The translations under genes and the position numbers were made by a program. Shown here one piece after another: positions 2,337 through 24,915 of a stretch of 32,075 nt of DNA. This DNA is from a virus (taxonomy: Duplodnaviria > Caudoviricetes). Numbering within the stretch: position 1 is the stretch's first letter; each line of letters begins with the position of its first letter. Below the pieces are notes generated by a model that was given only the letters and a program-made list of their open reading frames with translations, was not told the DNA's origin and did not search any database. Where the stretch lies: IMG/VR virus record IMGVR_UViG_3300038316_000066, positions 1 through 32,075 of that record; one strand, written 5' to 3'.

Positions 2337-3509
2337 TATAATCCTCCTGTTACCGCTATAGTGCCTGCTTTCGCAACTTCATTCCATGCGATACTAAACT
2401 GTATCCCCGCCTGTTTTACCGCTCTTAGAAACGGTTATAGAGGAAATGCGGAAGGACGGTGCTTGCTGGTCGTCCATCGCTGAAAGAGCAGGATAATATA
2501 ATGAAGAAGCTTCTACAGAATTGCCGATATCCATTGTGTTCAAATATTCTTTGATGTTTGAAATAATATCGCTTTGTACGGCCGTTGTATAATTGGAAGT
2601 CAGCAAAACAACTGTAACATTAACTTCAATCTCTATTTCTGTCGGCCTTGAAAAGTTTGTACTGCCGCCAACTGAGAATTGCGACGGAAGCATAGTCTGA
2701 GTAGTGCCGTATGTTCCGCAGCCAACAGTTTTCGCTTTGGCTATTGCAGCAGCGACTTCTTCGTCTGTTCCGCCCTCAACAACAGGCGCTATTGAGTGTG
2801 ACGGTATTCCGTTCGCATCTGTAGTGTTTGTGTAGTTCTCATATACTCTTGAGCGAGAAACACCATCTATTGCACGTATAGCCGCTTGTGTTGCGTTCAA
2901 TGGCGTTTGCGCAGGCAAGTCAACGCTGATACTTTGTCGCTTCCTTAGCTGCGTATCTGTTTCAGTATCAACACCAGGCTTTGCCGCTTCTGCATTTGAT
3001 ACTGAGTACCAGCCATATTGCGGTGTATTGATAGCCTGTATCGTTCCAACACCAGCCATAATGCTTCCTGGTATTTCGCTTGTTGCAGTACATGATAATA
3101 CACCAGAAGCAGGGATTTTTACGCTGGGCGGTAAATCCCACTTTTGATTAGACGTATCTTGCACGACGCCGTTTACAATTTCTGTGCCAGGTTCTCCTAT
3201 GCAGGTTATTTGCACCGTTGAATATGTAGCAGCAGCGCGTGAAATGCCGTTTAGCTTAACAATACTATCAAGGCCTGTACCTATCGCTGTCTGTGGGGAT
3301 TGATTATTATATGCGAGTCGGCAGCACTGGAAAGCGTCATAAAGCACTTTTGAAATTGTTGCAATATATTGCATGTCTTGACTGTCATTTTCAAGATATA
3401 TGTCTTGTCCAAAAATAGACTTTGCTTTTTCTATCAAATAGTTTTGAATGTCTGGAAAGTCTGGAATGTGCAAGCCGTTTATATCTACAAAAGGTTCAAA
3501 ATAAGACAT
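2336..3509 (-). CDS. Baseplate J/Mu gp47-like wedge protein with an apparent +1 frameshift near the C-terminus
   Basis: P.TA.G..LD, G.D.ETD..LR.R and VYEN.T...D.NG.P.HSI..VVEGG motifs. The ORF stops at TAG 2394-2396, but the +1 frame continues SIAWNEVAKAGTIAVTGGL to a TAA overlapping the next ATG (TAATG at 2334-2338). Confidence 0.85.
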
Positions 3510-4846: not shown

Positions 4847-4875
4847 TTGACAAATTATAGCTAAATGCCTATAAT
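4847..4875 (+). promoter_or_regulatory. Consensus sigmaA promoter of the membrane moron
   Basis: TTGACA (4847-4852), 17 bp, TATAAT (4870-4875); GAGGTG RBS at 4883-4888; ATG at 4895. Confidence 0.85.
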
Positions 4876-4894
4876 TCTCCCTGAGGTGTTTTCT

Positions 4895-5512
4895 ATGGAA
4901 AAATATCTTGACAATAGTAAACATAAAAAGGCAGTAAAAATAATAGCCTTGTGTGCTGTGCTTTTTATAGTCGGATTTATTTTAGGCGTCATAGGCTGGC
5001 AACCTTTCTTAGTCTATATAATAGCAATTTTGGTCATAGTCGCAATAAAGTTATGTAAAAGGTGTAAGGTCGCAGCTATTATTGCTGGGATTGTTGGAGC
5101 TTTTTTTGTATATGTGCTTATTAAAGGCTCTATAAGTATGCCAATACAAAATGCGCAGGGAAATGCTGTTGCAGATACTGAGCAATATATTCAAAGCAAT
5201 TATCCGGATTTTAAAGATTGTAAGTTTGAAGATAGCACTGTTTCTGTTGATGACATGGATAACAGCGAGTATGTTGTAAACGGTGAAATGAAAGATAACG
5301 GAGGGTGGAAACATTCTGTAAAAAGTGGGGTACAAATATCGCCGAATGAGCAAAAATTTATTATGTGTTATCTTTTTATAGATGGGCAGCAATATGTTTG
5401 GAATGCGCCGAGACAAAATGTAAACAGTTCAAATCCAAACACATGTTACAATTCAAACTATGCAGATGGTGCACAAGTAACTGTCGTACCAGATACTAAT
5501 TCAGGGGATTGA
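4895..5512 (+). CDS. Moron: 3-TM membrane protein with predicted extracytoplasmic domain (candidate superinfection exclusion protein)
   Basis: Opposite strand to tail genes, with its own promoter, RBS and terminator. 205 aa with three hydrophobic segments and a basic KLCKRCK loop. C-terminal YNSNYADGAQVTVVP matches the tape measure protein. Confidence 0.8.
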   Translation: MEKYLDNSKHKKAVKIIALCAVLFIVGFILGVIGWQPFLVYIIAILVIVAIKLCKRCKVAAIIAGIVGAFFVYVLIKGSISMPIQNAQGNAVADTEQYIQSNYPDFKDCKFEDSTVSVDDMDNSEYVVNGEMKDNGGWKHSVKSGVQISPNEQKFIMCYLFIDGQQYVWNAPRQNVNSSNPNTCYNSNYADGAQVTVVPDTNSGD

Positions 5513-5532
5513 ATAATTTATCGGGATATTAT

Positions 5533-5562
5533 AAAAGCGCTGCTTAATGCAGCGCCTTTTTT
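5533..5562. terminator. Bidirectional intrinsic terminator
   Basis: AAAA-GCGCTGC-TTAAT-GCAGCGC-CTTTTTT between the convergent moron and hub genes. Confidence 0.8.
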
Positions 5563-6643
5563 AGTTTGCCGTATAGCTTGGATTTGTCAACATAGACATT
5601 ACATTACCTCCTTGGTCTACAGCGGTAATGTCAGAATACCATTCATTTCCTCTTGTATCGCCTGTAAAGGTGATAGAGCATATCCGGTATATGCCGTTCG
5701 GGTCAAGCGTATATGGGAATGTAATACCTTGTGAATAAGAGCCTATCTGCGCCATCTGCTCAGTGATATATTTGCTTGCAATATGAATGAGCCCATAAGG
5801 CGTGAGCTTTGGATTAAGCAGGCAGCGTGCCTGTACGCCATAGTTAACTTGCTGTGGATTTCCGAGAAGTCCTGTCAGCGGATTTAATTCAACAGCACTT
5901 GGTCGATTGTATGGGCTTGGCACTTTGTTCGCAGAATCAGAATAGGAAAACATATATAGCTTACCATTGTCTATAAACCATGTGCCATTGATTGTTTTTG
6001 CTATATCAGCAAGCGTCTTTTTGGGCTGTCCATATACAGCCCCGCCTTTTGACATTACGATTTTGTCGAGAGAAGGGCTTGCATATCCTAAAGATACTGG
6101 GCTTGACGCTTTATTGCATATGTTGTTTACGACCTGCCTTGCTGTCTGCCCTTTGGCATATGTGAACGAACAAAAGCCTTCATTCAAAAATTGGTCGCCG
6201 TCAATAGCGAGTATGTTTAAGACAAAATCAGTACCGTTTACCTTAGCACGTGTGTACATAATTACTGTACCATCAAATATCTGTCCGCATATGCCATTTT
6301 TGTAGCCTGCCTCAACAATAACTCTATAGCCTTCCTGAATTATTGAGTTTTCAGTTTCAGCACTAAGGTTATAAATAGAAATAACGGCTTGATTTGGATA
6401 GTACATTGCGCAACGGCGTATTTGAAATTGAACACGCAGGTCGGAAACATCAAGCACTTTATCTGTATTTTTTTCTTTTGCAAACTCTTGATAATAGCTT
6501 TGTGCGTTTTTGCTGTTTGTACTTACGGCTTGAGTATGATGATATATTTTTATCCGGTAATCACGTATCCAGTCGAGGGAAGAAGCTAATGCCTTATTTT
6601 CAGGCACATAAGTTACGTTTGTGTCTGACACATCGTTTGCCAT
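5561..6643 (-). CDS. Baseplate hub protein (Mu gp44/T4 gp27-like)
   Basis: ISIYNLS.ET, V.VEAGY...G.IFDG.V, L.AIDGD, L.P.TGL.G.P, CLLNP.L and GDTRGNEWY motifs; ATG 6643 overlaps the upstream TAA. Confidence 0.8.
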   Translation of the reverse strand: MANDVSDTNVTYVPENKALASSLDWIRDYRIKIYHHTQAVSTNSKNAQSYYQEFAKEKNTDKVLDVSDLRVQFQIRRCAMYYPNQAVISIYNLSAETENSIIQEGYRVIVEAGYKNGICGQIFDGTVIMYTRAKVNGTDFVLNILAIDGDQFLNEGFCSFTYAKGQTARQVVNNICNKASSPVSLGYASPSLDKIVMSKGGAVYGQPKKTLADIAKTINGTWFIDNGKLYMFSYSDSANKVPSPYNRPSAVELNPLTGLLGNPQQVNYGVQARCLLNPKLTPYGLIHIASKYITEQMAQIGSYSQGITFPYTLDPNGIYRICSITFTGDTRGNEWYSDITAVDQGGNVMSMLTNPSYTAN

Positions 6644-6963
6644 TATTCTAACTCCCACAATAATTTAAAATTCTGCCCTATATTGTTCGCATCAGGGTTT
6701 TCTATCGTCGGGTCGCCTATATTGATTAAGTACAGGCTTCCAATCTTCAAATATTGATACTGTTCCAGCAAATCATGCCCGCAAAGCAACGGAATGCCTA
6801 ACACAAGCGGTTCCGATTCTTGATTGTAAATGCTTATTGTCCAATAGCCGGCTTGTTCATTCCATGACTGCGTAATTATAAACGTGATATTATGATTATC
6901 TCCTGGGATTTCGAGAGAATATGTTTGATTTGGCAGATTAGTTAGAGCAATTTCATTTACCAT
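6643..6963 (-). CDS. Small baseplate (plug-type) protein
   Basis: PNQT...WNE.AGYW....PL..GIPL..G.DLL.QY.YL.IG pattern; GGAGG RBS; located between Dit-like and hub genes. Confidence 0.7.
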   Translation of the reverse strand: MVNEIALTNLPNQTYSLEIPGDNHNITFIITQSWNEQAGYWTISIYNQESEPLVLGIPLLCGHDLLEQYQYLKIGSLYLINIGDPTIENPDANNIGQNFKLLWELE

Positions 6964-6964
6964 A

Positions 6965-7711
6965 TCATTCTCCCCCTCCTCCGACATAAAGCAACTGCTG
7001 ATAATTAAGCGTCGACTTACCTAAATGAAATGTTGTAGCATTTGCTATATTGCTCGGTATTATTGGCGTAATTGTGTACTGAAATAGTGCATCGTTTTTC
7101 CCTTTGCTTGAAGAAAATTTATTGAAATAATCTTCAATCGAATATGTTTTGCCGTTGTATGTTGCTGTTCGCACAAAGTCGAAAGGAATAGTTATTTTGT
7201 GCGTTTTACTTGACGGCGTAGTCGTTTTAGCGCCTGCATTGTTTTTATTTGTCGTTTGTGCATCGGACGATTGCTTAGCTGTCACTGGAATATCTGTAGC
7301 AGCTACAGTAATGATTTCTTGGAATAGCACTGTAGCTTTCATGCCAAACATTGTGTGCTTGTCTTTCGTCACTACAAAGCTTTTAATAAGCATATTGTTA
7401 TACTGCTTAAATGACGTCGTAATAGTAAGCAGTGTAGTATTTCTCCATAATGATTCAAGCACTTCAAAAGCCGATGTACTCCTGCCGGCAGAAGAGCTAA
7501 ATTGCCCTGAAATAACGCTCCCTAAGCAATCTGACATCCCAACATCCCACATGAATGTAACGGGTTGGTGATATACATGGTCGTTAATGTTTGCGCCCTC
7601 TTGCACTGGGTTTTGAGTGATTTCATTTGTAAACGTGTGAGTCTCTTTAAAAGTAACGTCCATGTAGTAAGATATGCCATTTTGGGTGTTTGTAATAATT
7701 ACAAGCGACAT
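6965..7711 (-). CDS. Dit-like/tube-initiator baseplate protein
   Basis: E.H....IT.NPV..GA.I.DH....P and T....Y.NM.I motifs; immediately downstream of the tape measure gene (TAATG overlap). Confidence 0.75.
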   Translation of the reverse strand: MSLVIITNTQNGISYYMDVTFKETHTFTNEITQNPVQEGANINDHVYHQPVTFMWDVGMSDCLGSVISGQFSSSAGRSTSAFEVLESLWRNTTLLTITTSFKQYNNMLIKSFVVTKDKHTMFGMKATVLFQEIITVAATDIPVTAKQSSDAQTTNKNNAGAKTTTPSSKTHKITIPFDFVRTATYNGKTYSIEDYFNKFSSSKGKNDALFQYTITPIIPSNIANATTFHLGKSTLNYQQLLYVGGGGE

Positions 7712-9189
7712 TACCTTTCAAGTCCTCTCGTATTTCTAATAAGCGCACTACTATTCAAAGCCTGATTAACACCATCATAAGCAGCTTGCCCCACATCTTG
7801 AGCATTTTCTGATTTTGCCGTTATGGCTATATTCGGCGCTACAGTTATCTTTGCACCCTCAGCATAATTAGAATTATAGTAAGAATTTTGTGGAGCATAA
7901 GCGGAAGCACTATCGGATTTTTTCCCGCCTAAAGCATTAAGAATAAAATCTGTGCCTTTGTCTAAGCCTTTAAAAAGGCCGCTGAACATTCCTTTATTTA
8001 ATTCCGCTATATTTGCTTGAATAGTAGCGCCTATTTGCCCCATATCGGCTTTAAACTCATATGCCGGTGTTTGGACATCTTTTGCCCAATCTTCCGCTGC
8101 TTTAGATTCATTCTGAGTGTTATATTGCGATGTGTGCTTTTGTATTTCTTTAAACTGCTTATTTAGCGTCGGATTTAGCGCAATTTCATTAAGGCCTGCT
8201 GTAGTTTTACCCATAGCAGAAAGTGTACTGTTAAGGCCGTATGCAGCGCTATCAGTTATCCATAACTCACGCGCCATCGTTTCAATATTAGTGTTGGCAT
8301 TAGCAAAGCCGTTTGACATTCCCCAAACTGCCTTTGTCATTAAGGCAATTCCAGTAGTGATACCAGCAGCAGCACCTAAAACTCCAAATTTGCTTACGCC
8401 GGCTACTTCGCCGATATCTGCTATTGTATCGTCGGCGCCTTCGGCTGCTGCTTTGTCGCCAAAAATGCTGCTTAATGTTTTCTTAAAGCCACCGGCTTTT
8501 TTATTTGTCTTATCAAAAGAGCCGCTAAGGTTATCCATGTAAGAGTTAAAGTGCTTAGCTCCAGAAGCACCTTGCATAATAGCAGATATGAAATTACCGT
8601 TTTTAGCGTTTACCCAGGCGCGCTCTAAGTCTGAAAAAGATTTCTTGAGATTATTCAGATTTTCTATGTTAACATCGACGTCTGGCTTTTTTGATGTTGT
8701 GCTCTGCTTCTTATGCGGTGTTGCTCTTTTCTGTGTGCTCTCCTGCTTAGTTGTCTGCTCCTGTGCAGGCGCTTCTCTGCGTTTTCTGTTCTTCCGTTCA
8801 TGAGAAGAAGCAGGTGCCTTAGGCTTATGTGAAGGCGTAGGAGGGGGGTCAGCGGTTGTTGTGTGAGGCCTTTTTGGCGGTTTGGAAGGCGGGCTTCCTG
8901 CTGCTTTCTGTGGCTTCTTGCCTTCGCTGCCTTTTTGTTTGCTTTTGTTTAGCTCTTCATTTGCCTTACGAAGTTTGTCGGTACTATCGATTTCGTCTTT
9001 AGTATCTTTAATGCGCTTTTTCTGCGCTTCACTGTGCTTTTGTTCCTGCTTTAAAGTTGATTTATCAGAAACGCCGAGCTCTTTGTTCCTTTTCTCAATC
9101 TCATCTTGAATTTTAAGAAACTTTTGCGCATTTTTGTCATCAAGGTCATACCCTAATGCGATAAGATATTCGTCTATATATTTACCCAT
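7711..9189 (-). CDS. Tape measure protein (short, ~492 aa)
   Basis: IDEYLIALGY N-terminal motif, coiled-coil then K/P-rich linker, Gly/Ala hydrophobic segment; follows the tail chaperones; GGAGG RBS before ATG 9189. Confidence 0.75.
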   Translation of the reverse strand: MGKYIDEYLIALGYDLDDKNAQKFLKIQDEIEKRNKELGVSDKSTLKQEQKHSEAQKKRIKDTKDEIDSTDKLRKANEELNKSKQKGSEGKKPQKAAGSPPSKPPKRPHTTTADPPPTPSHKPKAPASSHERKNRKRREAPAQEQTTKQESTQKRATPHKKQSTTSKKPDVDVNIENLNNLKKSFSDLERAWVNAKNGNFISAIMQGASGAKHFNSYMDNLSGSFDKTNKKAGGFKKTLSSIFGDKAAAEGADDTIADIGEVAGVSKFGVLGAAAGITTGIALMTKAVWGMSNGFANANTNIETMARELWITDSAAYGLNSTLSAMGKTTAGLNEIALNPTLNKQFKEIQKHTSQYNTQNESKAAEDWAKDVQTPAYEFKADMGQIGATIQANIAELNKGMFSGLFKGLDKGTDFILNALGGKKSDSASAYAPQNSYYNSNYAEGAKITVAPNIAITAKSENAQDVGQAAYDGVNQALNSSALIRNTRGLER

Positions 9190-9437
9190 AAATGCGCCTC
9201 CGATTTTCAGCTGCTTCATAATCGCGCCATTTGTTTTCGTTCTCTACGTCCATCATTTCGAGAATATCCAACAAATCAATGAAATTATATGTGCCGTCTT
9301 TTAGCTCTTTCTGCGCCCAATAATGAGCCATTACAGGCGCAAATAAAACAGCATTTACATTTGCAGGATTAGCTACACAATACTGCGCAAGGCGAGGGGA
9401 AAAATTTAGCTTGTTTCGGCCTTCCACCAGTCGTAAA
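9182..9437 (-). CDS. Tail assembly chaperone, frameshift extension (gpT-like part)
   Basis: In the -1 frame relative to the upstream chaperone, entered at a T9 run; ELKDGTY...DLLD..E...VE.EN motif; no clear RBS of its own. Confidence 0.7.
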
Positions 9438-14635: not shown

Positions 14636-15152
14636 TTAAGAATTGTTGCGGGTCTTAATTACAAGCTCTGCAATGCCATTTACATCAGCTGTAGTGCCCC
14701 ATGTGGTGTTATCTATTTTTATCGTATTAGCGATCTGCGGCAGCTTCAAAGCCACCTACGGGGTTTGCAGCAGTACCATTTGCAATGCGTACATATACGT
14801 TGCCATCGATGACCGGCGGGTTTACGCCTACATTATGGACTTCTACAGATACAGCACCGCGTTCAAACACCGGCAACACCTGTTCAGGCAGATATGCACC
14901 GACAGACTGGTCAGGATAAGACAGCGCAGACTTAATAAATGAAGCAGCGACGCCTTTAAATGCAGCAGACGTCGCTGTAAGGCCTGTAGCGCCTATAGCA
15001 GCTACTCCGCTTGCTACACTAAAGACAGGCGTACCGAATGCAATACTTGTGTCTCCAGCGTTCTTAAAGGCCTTAATTACCATATCTGGCTGTTCTGCAT
15101 AATGGCCGGAAAAGCCGTTGTTAAATGATGTTTCTATTACTTTACCAGGCAT
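14636..15152 (-). CDS. Capsid decoration/cement protein with an apparent frameshift before its last 30 residues
   Basis: MPGKVI...N.GF.G....PD, V.ERG.V.V, VYVRI and VGGFEAAAD, then TAA at 14727-14729; the +1 frame continues NTIKIDNTTWGTTADVNGIAELVIKTRNNS to a stop just before the capsid RBS. Confidence 0.75.
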
Positions 15153-18603: not shown

Positions 18604-18786
18604 CTATCTTAGCGGTTTCCCCTGCCTATATGCTTCTCGTGCTTCATTCAAACTCATCTCGTTTGCGCCGCCTTCGTAGTCGGGGTCATCTAATTGAACC
18701 CCGTCATTTTCCCAACCACATACGTCGCATACGTCAAAATCATTATCCTGTGCGAATTCATATTTACCACAAACAGGGCACTTCAT
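18604..18786 (-). CDS. Cys-rich CPCC-family protein (putative immunity/antitoxin)
   Basis: CPVCG...FDVCDVCGWENDG......GGAN.MSL.EAR signature; starts 4 bp after the portal-toxin stop. Confidence 0.85.
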   Translation of the reverse strand: MKCPVCGKYEFAQDNDFDVCDVCGWENDGVQLDDPDYEGGANEMSLNEAREAYRQGKPLR

Positions 18787-24054: not shown

Positions 24055-24279
24055 ATATTACCGGTCCTTCCCAGTAACAAGTACAATTTATTTTTCTTTG
24101 TTAAAATTGTAGGTCAAGTTAATGTTTATATCTAATATGCTAATAATTTATTATTATAATTGTAAATATTTATTATTGATTTTCCGAATAATTTGATTAT
24201 AGTTGTAAGTGGAAAATGCTGAAATTAATGTAAGCCGTTAGTAGCATTGCATCAGGTAAAATTAAAGGAGGACTCAAGA

Positions 24280-24915
24280 ATGACTAAAAAGTGTAAAAAA
24301 ATTCTGTCGTTTGTTTTGTCCGCATCCTTTATTCTTGTGTGCATTCCGACCGCAAGAGTATTTGCGGCAGAAAAAAGCATCTTACCCGCAAATCGGCCCA
24401 CACATCAAGTACTATACACCAACAATTTTGAAAACAGTGAAACATATCCCATTGCTTCCAATCCATCCTATCAAATTAAATCAGTTGGGACAGGCCATGC
24501 TCTCTTCTTTACACAGCCACTAAATGAAAGCAACCAGTATGAATTATATGCTGATTTTTTAATACCTTCTTATCACGGAGATCTATACCCAGATACTACC
24601 GTCAATTTTGATGTTATACTTCCTAAGAATGCCGTAAACTTTAATGGTAATATTCTGGGCGATTTTGAGTTCTATGATAACGGATATTGGAAAAGTGCGA
24701 GTTGGAATGCTCCATCCGGATCTGTGGAAGCATCCGACTTTAAAAATCTTGGTAATGGCTATTGCAGTGCTCGTATGTCCGTCTCAATTTACGATCTCAC
24801 AAGTGCAGAAAATGCAACTCGCTTAAGGATCGCAGTTTATGGGACCGCTATGGGAAGAATAACGACCAATTATTCCGGATTAATTGGCATAGACAATATT
24901 GTGTTTACCCTTTAG
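24280..24915 (+). CDS. Moron: secreted protein with a CBM-like beta-sandwich domain
   Basis: AAAGGAGG RBS; signal peptide MTKKCKK-hydrophobic-VFA|AE; N.FE start and YSGLIGIDNIVF end, typical of galactose-binding-like CBM folds; AT-rich upstream region. Confidence 0.7.
   Translation: MTKKCKKILSFVLSASFILVCIPTARVFAAEKSILPANRPTHQVLYTNNFENSETYPIASNPSYQIKSVGTGHALFFTQPLNESNQYELYADFLIPSYHGDLYPDTTVNFDVILPKNAVNFNGNILGDFEFYDNGYWKSASWNAPSGSVEASDFKNLGNGYCSARMSVSIYDLTSAENATRLRIAVYGTAMGRITTNYSGLIGIDNIVFTL

Follow-up and report, generated by a model that had tools for sequence, protein, structure and literature searches.

Several described phage proteins act on a tailed phage's tape measure protein (TMP). 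In the contractile-tailed phage T4, the small phage-encoded membrane protein Imm binds TMP and blocks genome entry (bioRxiv 10.64898/2026.03.06.709160). Ltp, an exclusion protein exposed at the surface and encoded by the Gram-positive temperate phage TP-J34, is proposed to work on the C-terminal end of TMP (PMC3952083, PMC10883804), and gp15 of HK97, a predicted membrane protein encoded by an add-on (moron) gene in the tail region, is escaped by swapping of the tube and TMP (PMC10883804). Tab of the Pseudomonas phage JBD26, an opposite-strand prophage gene with its own promoter, acts in assembly through the TMP C-terminal region (PMC10884400, PMC11364771), and P-FimU, a prophage gene of the tail region, provides defence by molecular mimicry (PMC12952977). 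Here we describe a moron gene in a complete 32-kb virus record (IMGVR_UViG_3300038316_000066, Caudoviricetes), analysed over its whole length of 32,075 nucleotides (the window), whose predicted membrane protein carries near its end a short likeness of the phage's own TMP.

Residues 185-199 of the moron protein, YNSNYADGAQVTVVP, were aligned with YNSNYAEGAKITVAP of the TMP, which corresponds to TMP residues 438-452 when numbered from the second ATG (492 amino acids) or 448-462 from the first (502 amino acids), with 11 of the 15 residues and 33 of the 45 bases identical. A preliminary description of this DNA had reported the match, and it withstood testing: the Smith-Waterman score of 72 for the pair was reached by none of 5000 global and none of 5000 local-window shuffles (Gumbel P of 7e-6 and 2e-5, respectively), and the score of the moron protein against TMP dropped to 30 when the motif was removed. 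This pair ranked first among the 666 gene pairs of the window, but narrowly (72 vs 68 and 66), with the two runner-up scores reached by 1 and 5 of 600 shuffles. The window alone provides moderate evidence, and the homologs described below make the likeness between moron and TMP firm.

Six of the 11 identical residues use other codons, and codon positions 1, 2 and 3 agreed in 13, 14 and 6 of 15 instances between moron and TMP, therefore it is the protein and not the DNA that is conserved. Third-position agreement among pairs of TMPs was comparable, at 3-8 apart from two close pairs, consistent with the selection at the protein level that had been proposed. Judged by its codons, the likeness is old and has been kept at the level of the protein rather than the DNA. 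Two exact DNA patterns of the motif, searched across IMG/VR, returned 3 and 9 stretches, of which two were TMPs of this phage group and none was another moron, so the motif is rare in that collection and not a common one.

We assembled a family of 12 members sharing the exported domain of the moron protein, leaving out P0013 (1760 amino acids, eight short matches). The homolog in L085 came from a hub-guided metagenome scan, and P0003, P0007 and eight tail-less relatives came from profile and whole-library searches (L, P and X numbers denote related phage tail loci, protein relatives and sequencing runs, respectively). As the preliminary description had anticipated, the tail is kept in homologs: four of the 12 members, 36-57% identical to the window protein, carry the motif after a linker. 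These linkers vary in length and sequence, while N-Y-A-[DE]-[GS]-A is constant, and the motif is conserved at the protein level in four diverged versions. A profile built from five TMP segments only placed the four tail-bearing proteins at the top of the 12 (E-values of 7e-9, 9e-6, 8e-5 and 6e-3, the rest at least 0.12), and each of the four tails scored above all 2000 of its own shuffles, in a test that gave results for seven of nine proteins. The L085 homolog (245 amino acids, 39% identical) has a zinc-ribbon-like N-terminal part and ends in YEGNYAESAIIT followed by GGQIEVDP. Its tail (L085, 3174-3270) seems to carry the motif in two parts, the second, G-Q-I-E-V-D-P, after an acidic spacer. 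The tail of P0003 is YYGNYAESATIEIAPEI, in which the likeness is extended (IEIAPEI vs ITVAPNI/APTI), and that of P0007, a fragment, is VNGNYADSADITVDP. The eight relatives without the motif, comprising four lipoprotein-type proteins, three zinc-ribbon membrane proteins and P0010, end in varied other C-terminal parts. In the shuffle test the score of P0008 was reached by 6 of 400 shuffles through a stretch without the core motif, and the match was taken as chance.

Other searches did not enlarge this family. A single-sequence homolog search returned only the window's own cluster, viral scans queried with the moron gave no relative, and a final profile search found no further family members. Genome searches around G001 gave weak matches (4 of 401, 3 of 151 and 0 of 18) with no true homolog, those inspected being unrelated, and neither P0003 nor the TMP end had a match in 50,697 GenBank phages. 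The moron protein had no family above cut-off in Pfam, PHROG or PADLOC, nor did P0002 and P0003 in Pfam. Foldseek on the moron model returned nothing from the PDB at E<=0.001 and a single unnamed viral match, and all Atlas matches were <0.8.

The moron gene had a GC content of 35% vs 44% for the window, and its promoter was the only 12/12 consensus match among eight loose matches in the window, with shuffles averaging 14 loose matches. An alternative longer open reading frame (ORF) start at 4865 falls within this promoter. Independent transcription had been claimed for the gene; the consensus promoter and the hairpin are present, and their activity is a prediction from those signals. A single RNA run gave short patchy pieces over the moron and late genes alike. 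The window protein, P0002 and P0003 have the same layout, in which a basic stretch and hydrophobic helices precede a basic loop, followed by one further helix and an acidic domain, and the same domain follows lipobox-like signals, judged by eye, in P0006, P0008, P0009 and P0011. This exported domain is shared by lipoproteins and zinc-ribbon membrane proteins. In the AlphaFold2 (AF2) model, computed from four alignment rows, the predicted local distance difference test (pLDDT) score was mostly 67-90 from residue 91 and <50 for residues 171-205. Because a basic loop precedes the last helix in these three proteins and relatives are lipoprotein-type, the domain and tail are predicted to lie outside the membrane, in agreement with the C-out topology first suggested. 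The protein would accordingly resemble the TMP-directed exclusion proteins in being membrane-anchored and facing the envelope, as judged from hydropathy, charge and lipoprotein relatives.

The slot between the hub and spike genes varied among related tail loci. It was empty in L003 and L005, held an unrelated 151-amino-acid membrane gene in L001 and L086, and held a lipoprotein gene and a SAP-domain gene in L002 and L006. In L085 the moron homolog occupied the same slot in reversed orientation, preceded by a homologous promoter (TTGACA-17-TATTAT), and identity between L085 and L002 was 98.5% on one flank, as far as the hub end, and 93.7% on the other, which begins with the spike, yet their slot contents differed. 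Since the slot is empty, otherwise filled or swapped in relatives, the moron gene is a dispensable, exchanged cassette; the promoter and terminator matches and the swapping between conserved genes are those expected of a moron. In both the window and L085 the slot holds a single gene, with no partner gene kept alongside. We also screened the genes of 55 distinct related tail loci against their own TMP (1689 comparisons; L074, L083 and L101 were dropped for a wrong TMP frame), and only the window (72) and the near-identical strain L084 (66) stood out, the next score being 52. Two convergent genes fill the L002 slot (7130-9180), one for a 320-amino-acid lipoprotein-like protein and one for a 346-amino-acid protein that gave SAP and Mu F-like matches. 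The former contains a faint G-T-Q-V-E-I stretch, which was unranked in the profile search and not counted.

By alignment, the moron copies an N-Y-A-E-G-A turn and the first half of a widely conserved strand-like segment of TMP, and this version of the motif is specific to the TMP subgroup of the window. For the final 72 residues of TMP, an AF2 model was computed from an alignment with 31 further ends out of 58 collected; the monomer formed one helix over the 28 terminal residues, and the motif was unstructured. A PDB sequence search with the TMP profile gave chance rows only. As far as the consulted text of the structural papers goes, only the final 17-25 residues of TMP, or a fragment of its terminal helix, were modelled against the hub/spike in A-1(L) (PMC10966104), Mu (PMC11915804), phiTE (PMC11972413) and Bas63 (PMC12609058), and TMP cleavage near the C-terminus was proposed in phiTE (PMC11972413) and A-1(L) (PMC10966104). 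In E217 the hub and cap remain on the tube after contraction and the spike is lost, and the consulted text of that paper contains no TMP passage (PMC10329688); in Pam3 the plug was placed outside the lumen (PMC9942802).

The proposal in the preliminary description that each tail would track its cognate TMP was neither upheld nor refuted. No preference was observed in the two pairs with genomic context: the window tail matched its own TMP and that of L002 equally (11 of 15 each), and the L085 tail matched its own TMP at 8 of 15 positions, that of the window at 8 and that of L084 at 9. The six TMPs were 10-14 of 15 identical to each other in the motif, so this comparison has little power. The window tail was as near to the TMPs (8-11 of 15) as the TMPs were to one another, and nearer to them than to other tails, with the tails agreeing among themselves at 6-9 of 15 positions. 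Strain changes were observed in adjacent core codons of the TMP motif, G455S (L084, run X13) and A456T (run X12), at positions that were unchanged across the six diverged TMPs, and no change was listed in the moron tail in the four runs compared. These two account for two of the four listed amino-acid changes in the last 130 TMP codons, of which the motif comprises 15 (P about 0.07). The observation was made post hoc on 40 of 94 variants, and is a weak hint in favour of an action directed at TMP.

Our preferred reading, which we hold tentatively and somewhat short of probable, is that this moron excludes superinfecting phages by mimicry, acting on TMP once it is ejected, with the membrane look-alike stalling the DNA channel of related phages. 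Temperate life in Ruminococcaceae-type hosts is likely for this phage, because a relative with a 67% identical hub (L005) sits in a 581-kb contig of a Ruminococcaceae bacterium, and the moron may be expressed from the prophage in lysogens. The motif would be a self-pairing strand segment of TMP, which is the simplest model because the copied piece is not the hub/spike anchor. Following contraction of the tail of a related phage, the C-terminal end of its TMP would leave the tube first and reach the membrane, where the anchored look-alike on its flexible linker could pair with the same segment; such pairing would stall channel formation and block DNA injection. One tail might cover the entire phage group rather than one cognate phage, since the TMP motif is nearly the same across the group. 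With the moron tail outside, as predicted, the phage could assemble its own tails in the cytoplasm undisturbed, so that no antidote would be needed. More doubtful is the wider proposition that a TMP copy displayed on an anchor is a dominant-negative poison of the channel of kin, grafted on an unrelated exported domain, moving as a cassette and already driving matching TMP changes.

Several observations weigh against this exclusion by a TMP look-alike. The motif is absent in eight of the 12 family members, so the domain has a role without it, and across the 55 related tail loci none of the other genes carries a copy of the TMP end from its own locus. The L085 tail is weak alone (E=2 among 4170 ORFs, and outside the top 14 of the 1689 comparisons). 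The tail-bearing members were unresolved as a clade in the domain tree (3 changes, with 182 of 500 shuffles as low), and a single clade was not rejected either (AU p 0.227). Genomic context was available for only two of the four tail-bearing genes (window/L084 and L085), and no tracking of the cognate TMP was seen in these two pairs, a comparison of little power because the TMP motif is nearly invariant. Of the second TMP strand, which is the most widely conserved one, the tail lacks the greater part. An integrase match was absent among the 34 window proteins scanned, and lysogeny of this record is a presumption.

Other explanations share part of this evidence. A piece of the TMP gene may have been captured once onto an exported protein and kept for a reason other than blocking, such as stability, self-association or a processing site. 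The tail-less occurrence of the domain with varied other C-terminal parts fits such a history, as do a ready donor in the TMP gene 2.3 kb from the moron, the 33 of 45 bases that still agree, the C-terminal TMP cleavage proposed in phiTE and A-1(L), and the lack of cognate tracking. We nevertheless regard it as unlikely: third codon positions are saturated and residues kept, the tails resemble the TMPs more than one another, which would be expected were each constrained to stay close to the TMP sequence, and AF2 predicts that the tail does not fold onto the domain. If instead the TMP motif bound a protein of the host membrane or wall that entry requires, the moron tail could act by occupying that partner. 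The sequence evidence would be the same, entry of HK97 reportedly involves TMP and a host inner-membrane protein, and a subgroup-specific motif might reflect a host-matched site; such a partner is, however, hypothetical, and the strand into which the motif continues is conserved even among phages whose hosts differ widely. That conservation suggests a structural function within the tail and leaves this reading quite unlikely.

The option placed first in the preliminary description, that the tail is a decoy plugging the hub, tube initiator or spike site vacated by the ejected TMP, has been weakened by the solved tails and now appears improbable. The modelled hub/spike contacts in the four myophages are the last 17-25 TMP residues, whereas the stretch copied by the moron lies 40-55 residues from the end, upstream of the terminal helix by which TMP binds hub and spike in solved myophage tails; the helix predicted there for the window's TMP is not part of the copy. 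The moron gene adjoins the hub and spike genes, but the slot also houses unrelated genes, so position says little; in its favour, the hub and cap proteins that stay on the E217 tube tip after contraction could reach the membrane. A cytoplasmic tail interfering with tail assembly, in the manner of Tab, is highly improbable. Although Tab, a minus-strand prophage gene with its own promoter, does act via the TMP C-terminal region, the basic loop that precedes the final helix in three homologs, the N-terminal zinc-ribbon-like CxxC pairs and the lipoprotein-type relatives place the moron domain outside, and neither L085 nor the window keeps a partner gene next to it. Chance likeness, finally, is hardly credible and largely refuted: the best of the 666 window pairs outscores the runner-up by only 4 points, but three further diverged homologs match the TMP-only profile.

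Table 1. Coordinates and strands of the moron gene, its signals and the neighbouring tail genes in the window.
Feature	Position	Strand	Basis or remark
Sigma-70-type promoter, TTGACA-17-TATAAT	4847..4875	+	12/12 consensus match
Ribosome-binding-site-like GAGGTG	4884..4889	+	precedes ATG 4895
Moron gene, 205-amino-acid membrane protein	4895..5512	+	between hub and spike-lysozyme genes, opposite to late genes
Membrane anchor, predicted, ~residues 16-76	4940..5122	+	three hydrophobic stretches, KLCKRCK before last; hydropathy, charge, AF2 helices
Folded exported domain (predicted), residues 83-169, one helix and beta sheet	5141..5401	+	AF2, family alignment
TMP-like motif on predicted disordered tail	5447..5491	+	alignment, shuffles, AF2 pLDDT <50 for residues 171-205
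Terminator-like hairpin	5537..5555	+	sequence
Spike gene with fused phage lysozyme	3871..4791	-	PF00959; spike identity inferred from position; downstream flank of slot
Baseplate hub, E217 gp41 type	5561..6643	-	PF22759 (E217_GP41), phrog_196; upstream flank of slot
Plug (Pam3 gp18 type) and Dit-like tube initiator genes	6643..7711	-	PF22479, PF21821
TMP gene, 502 amino acids; 492 from second ATG	7711..9219	-	between chaperone-like and Dit-like genes
Terminal TMP helix, predicted, 28 residues, not copied by moron	7720..7803	-	AF2
TMP motif copied by moron	7834..7878	-	40-55 residues before TMP C-terminus

The late genes of the window are on the minus strand and encode a contractile tail of the E217/Pam3 type, with Pfam and PHROG matches to a DUF3383 sheath, KPP10 tube, Dit-like initiator, Pam3 gp18 plug, E217 gp41 hub and baseplate J. 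The TMP gene was named directly by no family and was identified by position and by its C-terminus, which is alignable with TMP C-termini of related tails. The region was present whole or in part in 20 public runs from 6 studies, seven of which runs may be its source, and the phage was found in fermentation and bioreactor metagenomes. The spike C-terminal part was variable, with lysozyme in the window and a longer, different part in L001 (4946-6340), and two tandem spike-like genes were observed in L009 (2699-4512) and L010 (6045-7858). The baseplate J gene (2394-3509, minus strand) has one extra base near 2396-2398 compared with L084 and runs X9, X11 and X20, giving 371 instead of 390 amino acids, a difference absent in run X8. 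Compared with the window, 2 bases are inserted at 14732 in strains X9 and X11, and X9 has a further 17 inserted at 18609. Raised depth and loose ends over the distal tail fibre region (1-502) in several runs suggest variable fibre tips among strains. A second plus-strand gene (24247-24915) encodes a likely exported protein without a family match; it scored 68 against the product of the tail fibre gene (2-1747), a score reached by 1 of 600 shuffles, through a common K-[DN]-L-G-N-G stretch that is perhaps part of a sugar-binding-like domain.

A 15-residue look-alike would offer a handle on how exclusion proteins recognise the injection machine, and on the role during DNA entry of the unresolved stretch before the TMP terminal helix. 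The natural TMP variants G455S and A456T and the tail-less relatives provide ready controls, and phage resistance is of practical value in the fermentation and bioreactor settings where this phage occurs. An exclusion protein copying TMP sequence was not found in the literature covered, which was mostly non-subscription papers without supplements, so a buried report is possible. The moron protein had no Pfam match to Ltp, and no sequence or profile membership in the Ltp, T4 Imm or HK97 gp15 families was found above cut-off in Pfam, PHROG or PADLOC.

Set beside the described systems, the moron differs from each in a particular way. T4 Imm, from a virulent phage and without a family match to the moron, binds the helical-bundle part of TMP, and the word 'mimic' occurs 0 times in the main text of that paper (10.64898/2026.03.06.709160). 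Ltp is a lipoprotein with repeat domains and charge-based binding, for which the consulted text reports no copy of TMP sequence (PMC3952083, PMC10883804). HK97 is an E. coli siphophage, unlike the phage of the window, and its gp15 has no sequence link to the moron and no TMP copy reported in the consulted text (PMC10883804). Tab blocks assembly inside the cell and needs anti-Tab (PMC10884400), whereas the moron is predicted to lie outside, has no kept partner and sits in a single-gene slot, which sets it apart from the Tab/Tai tail-assembly blockers. P-FimU hides the receptor by imitating a pilus protein of the host (PMC12952977), and the moron copies the phage's own virion protein. TMP-directed exclusion is already known; what would be new here, if the function holds, is exclusion by a copied TMP sequence.

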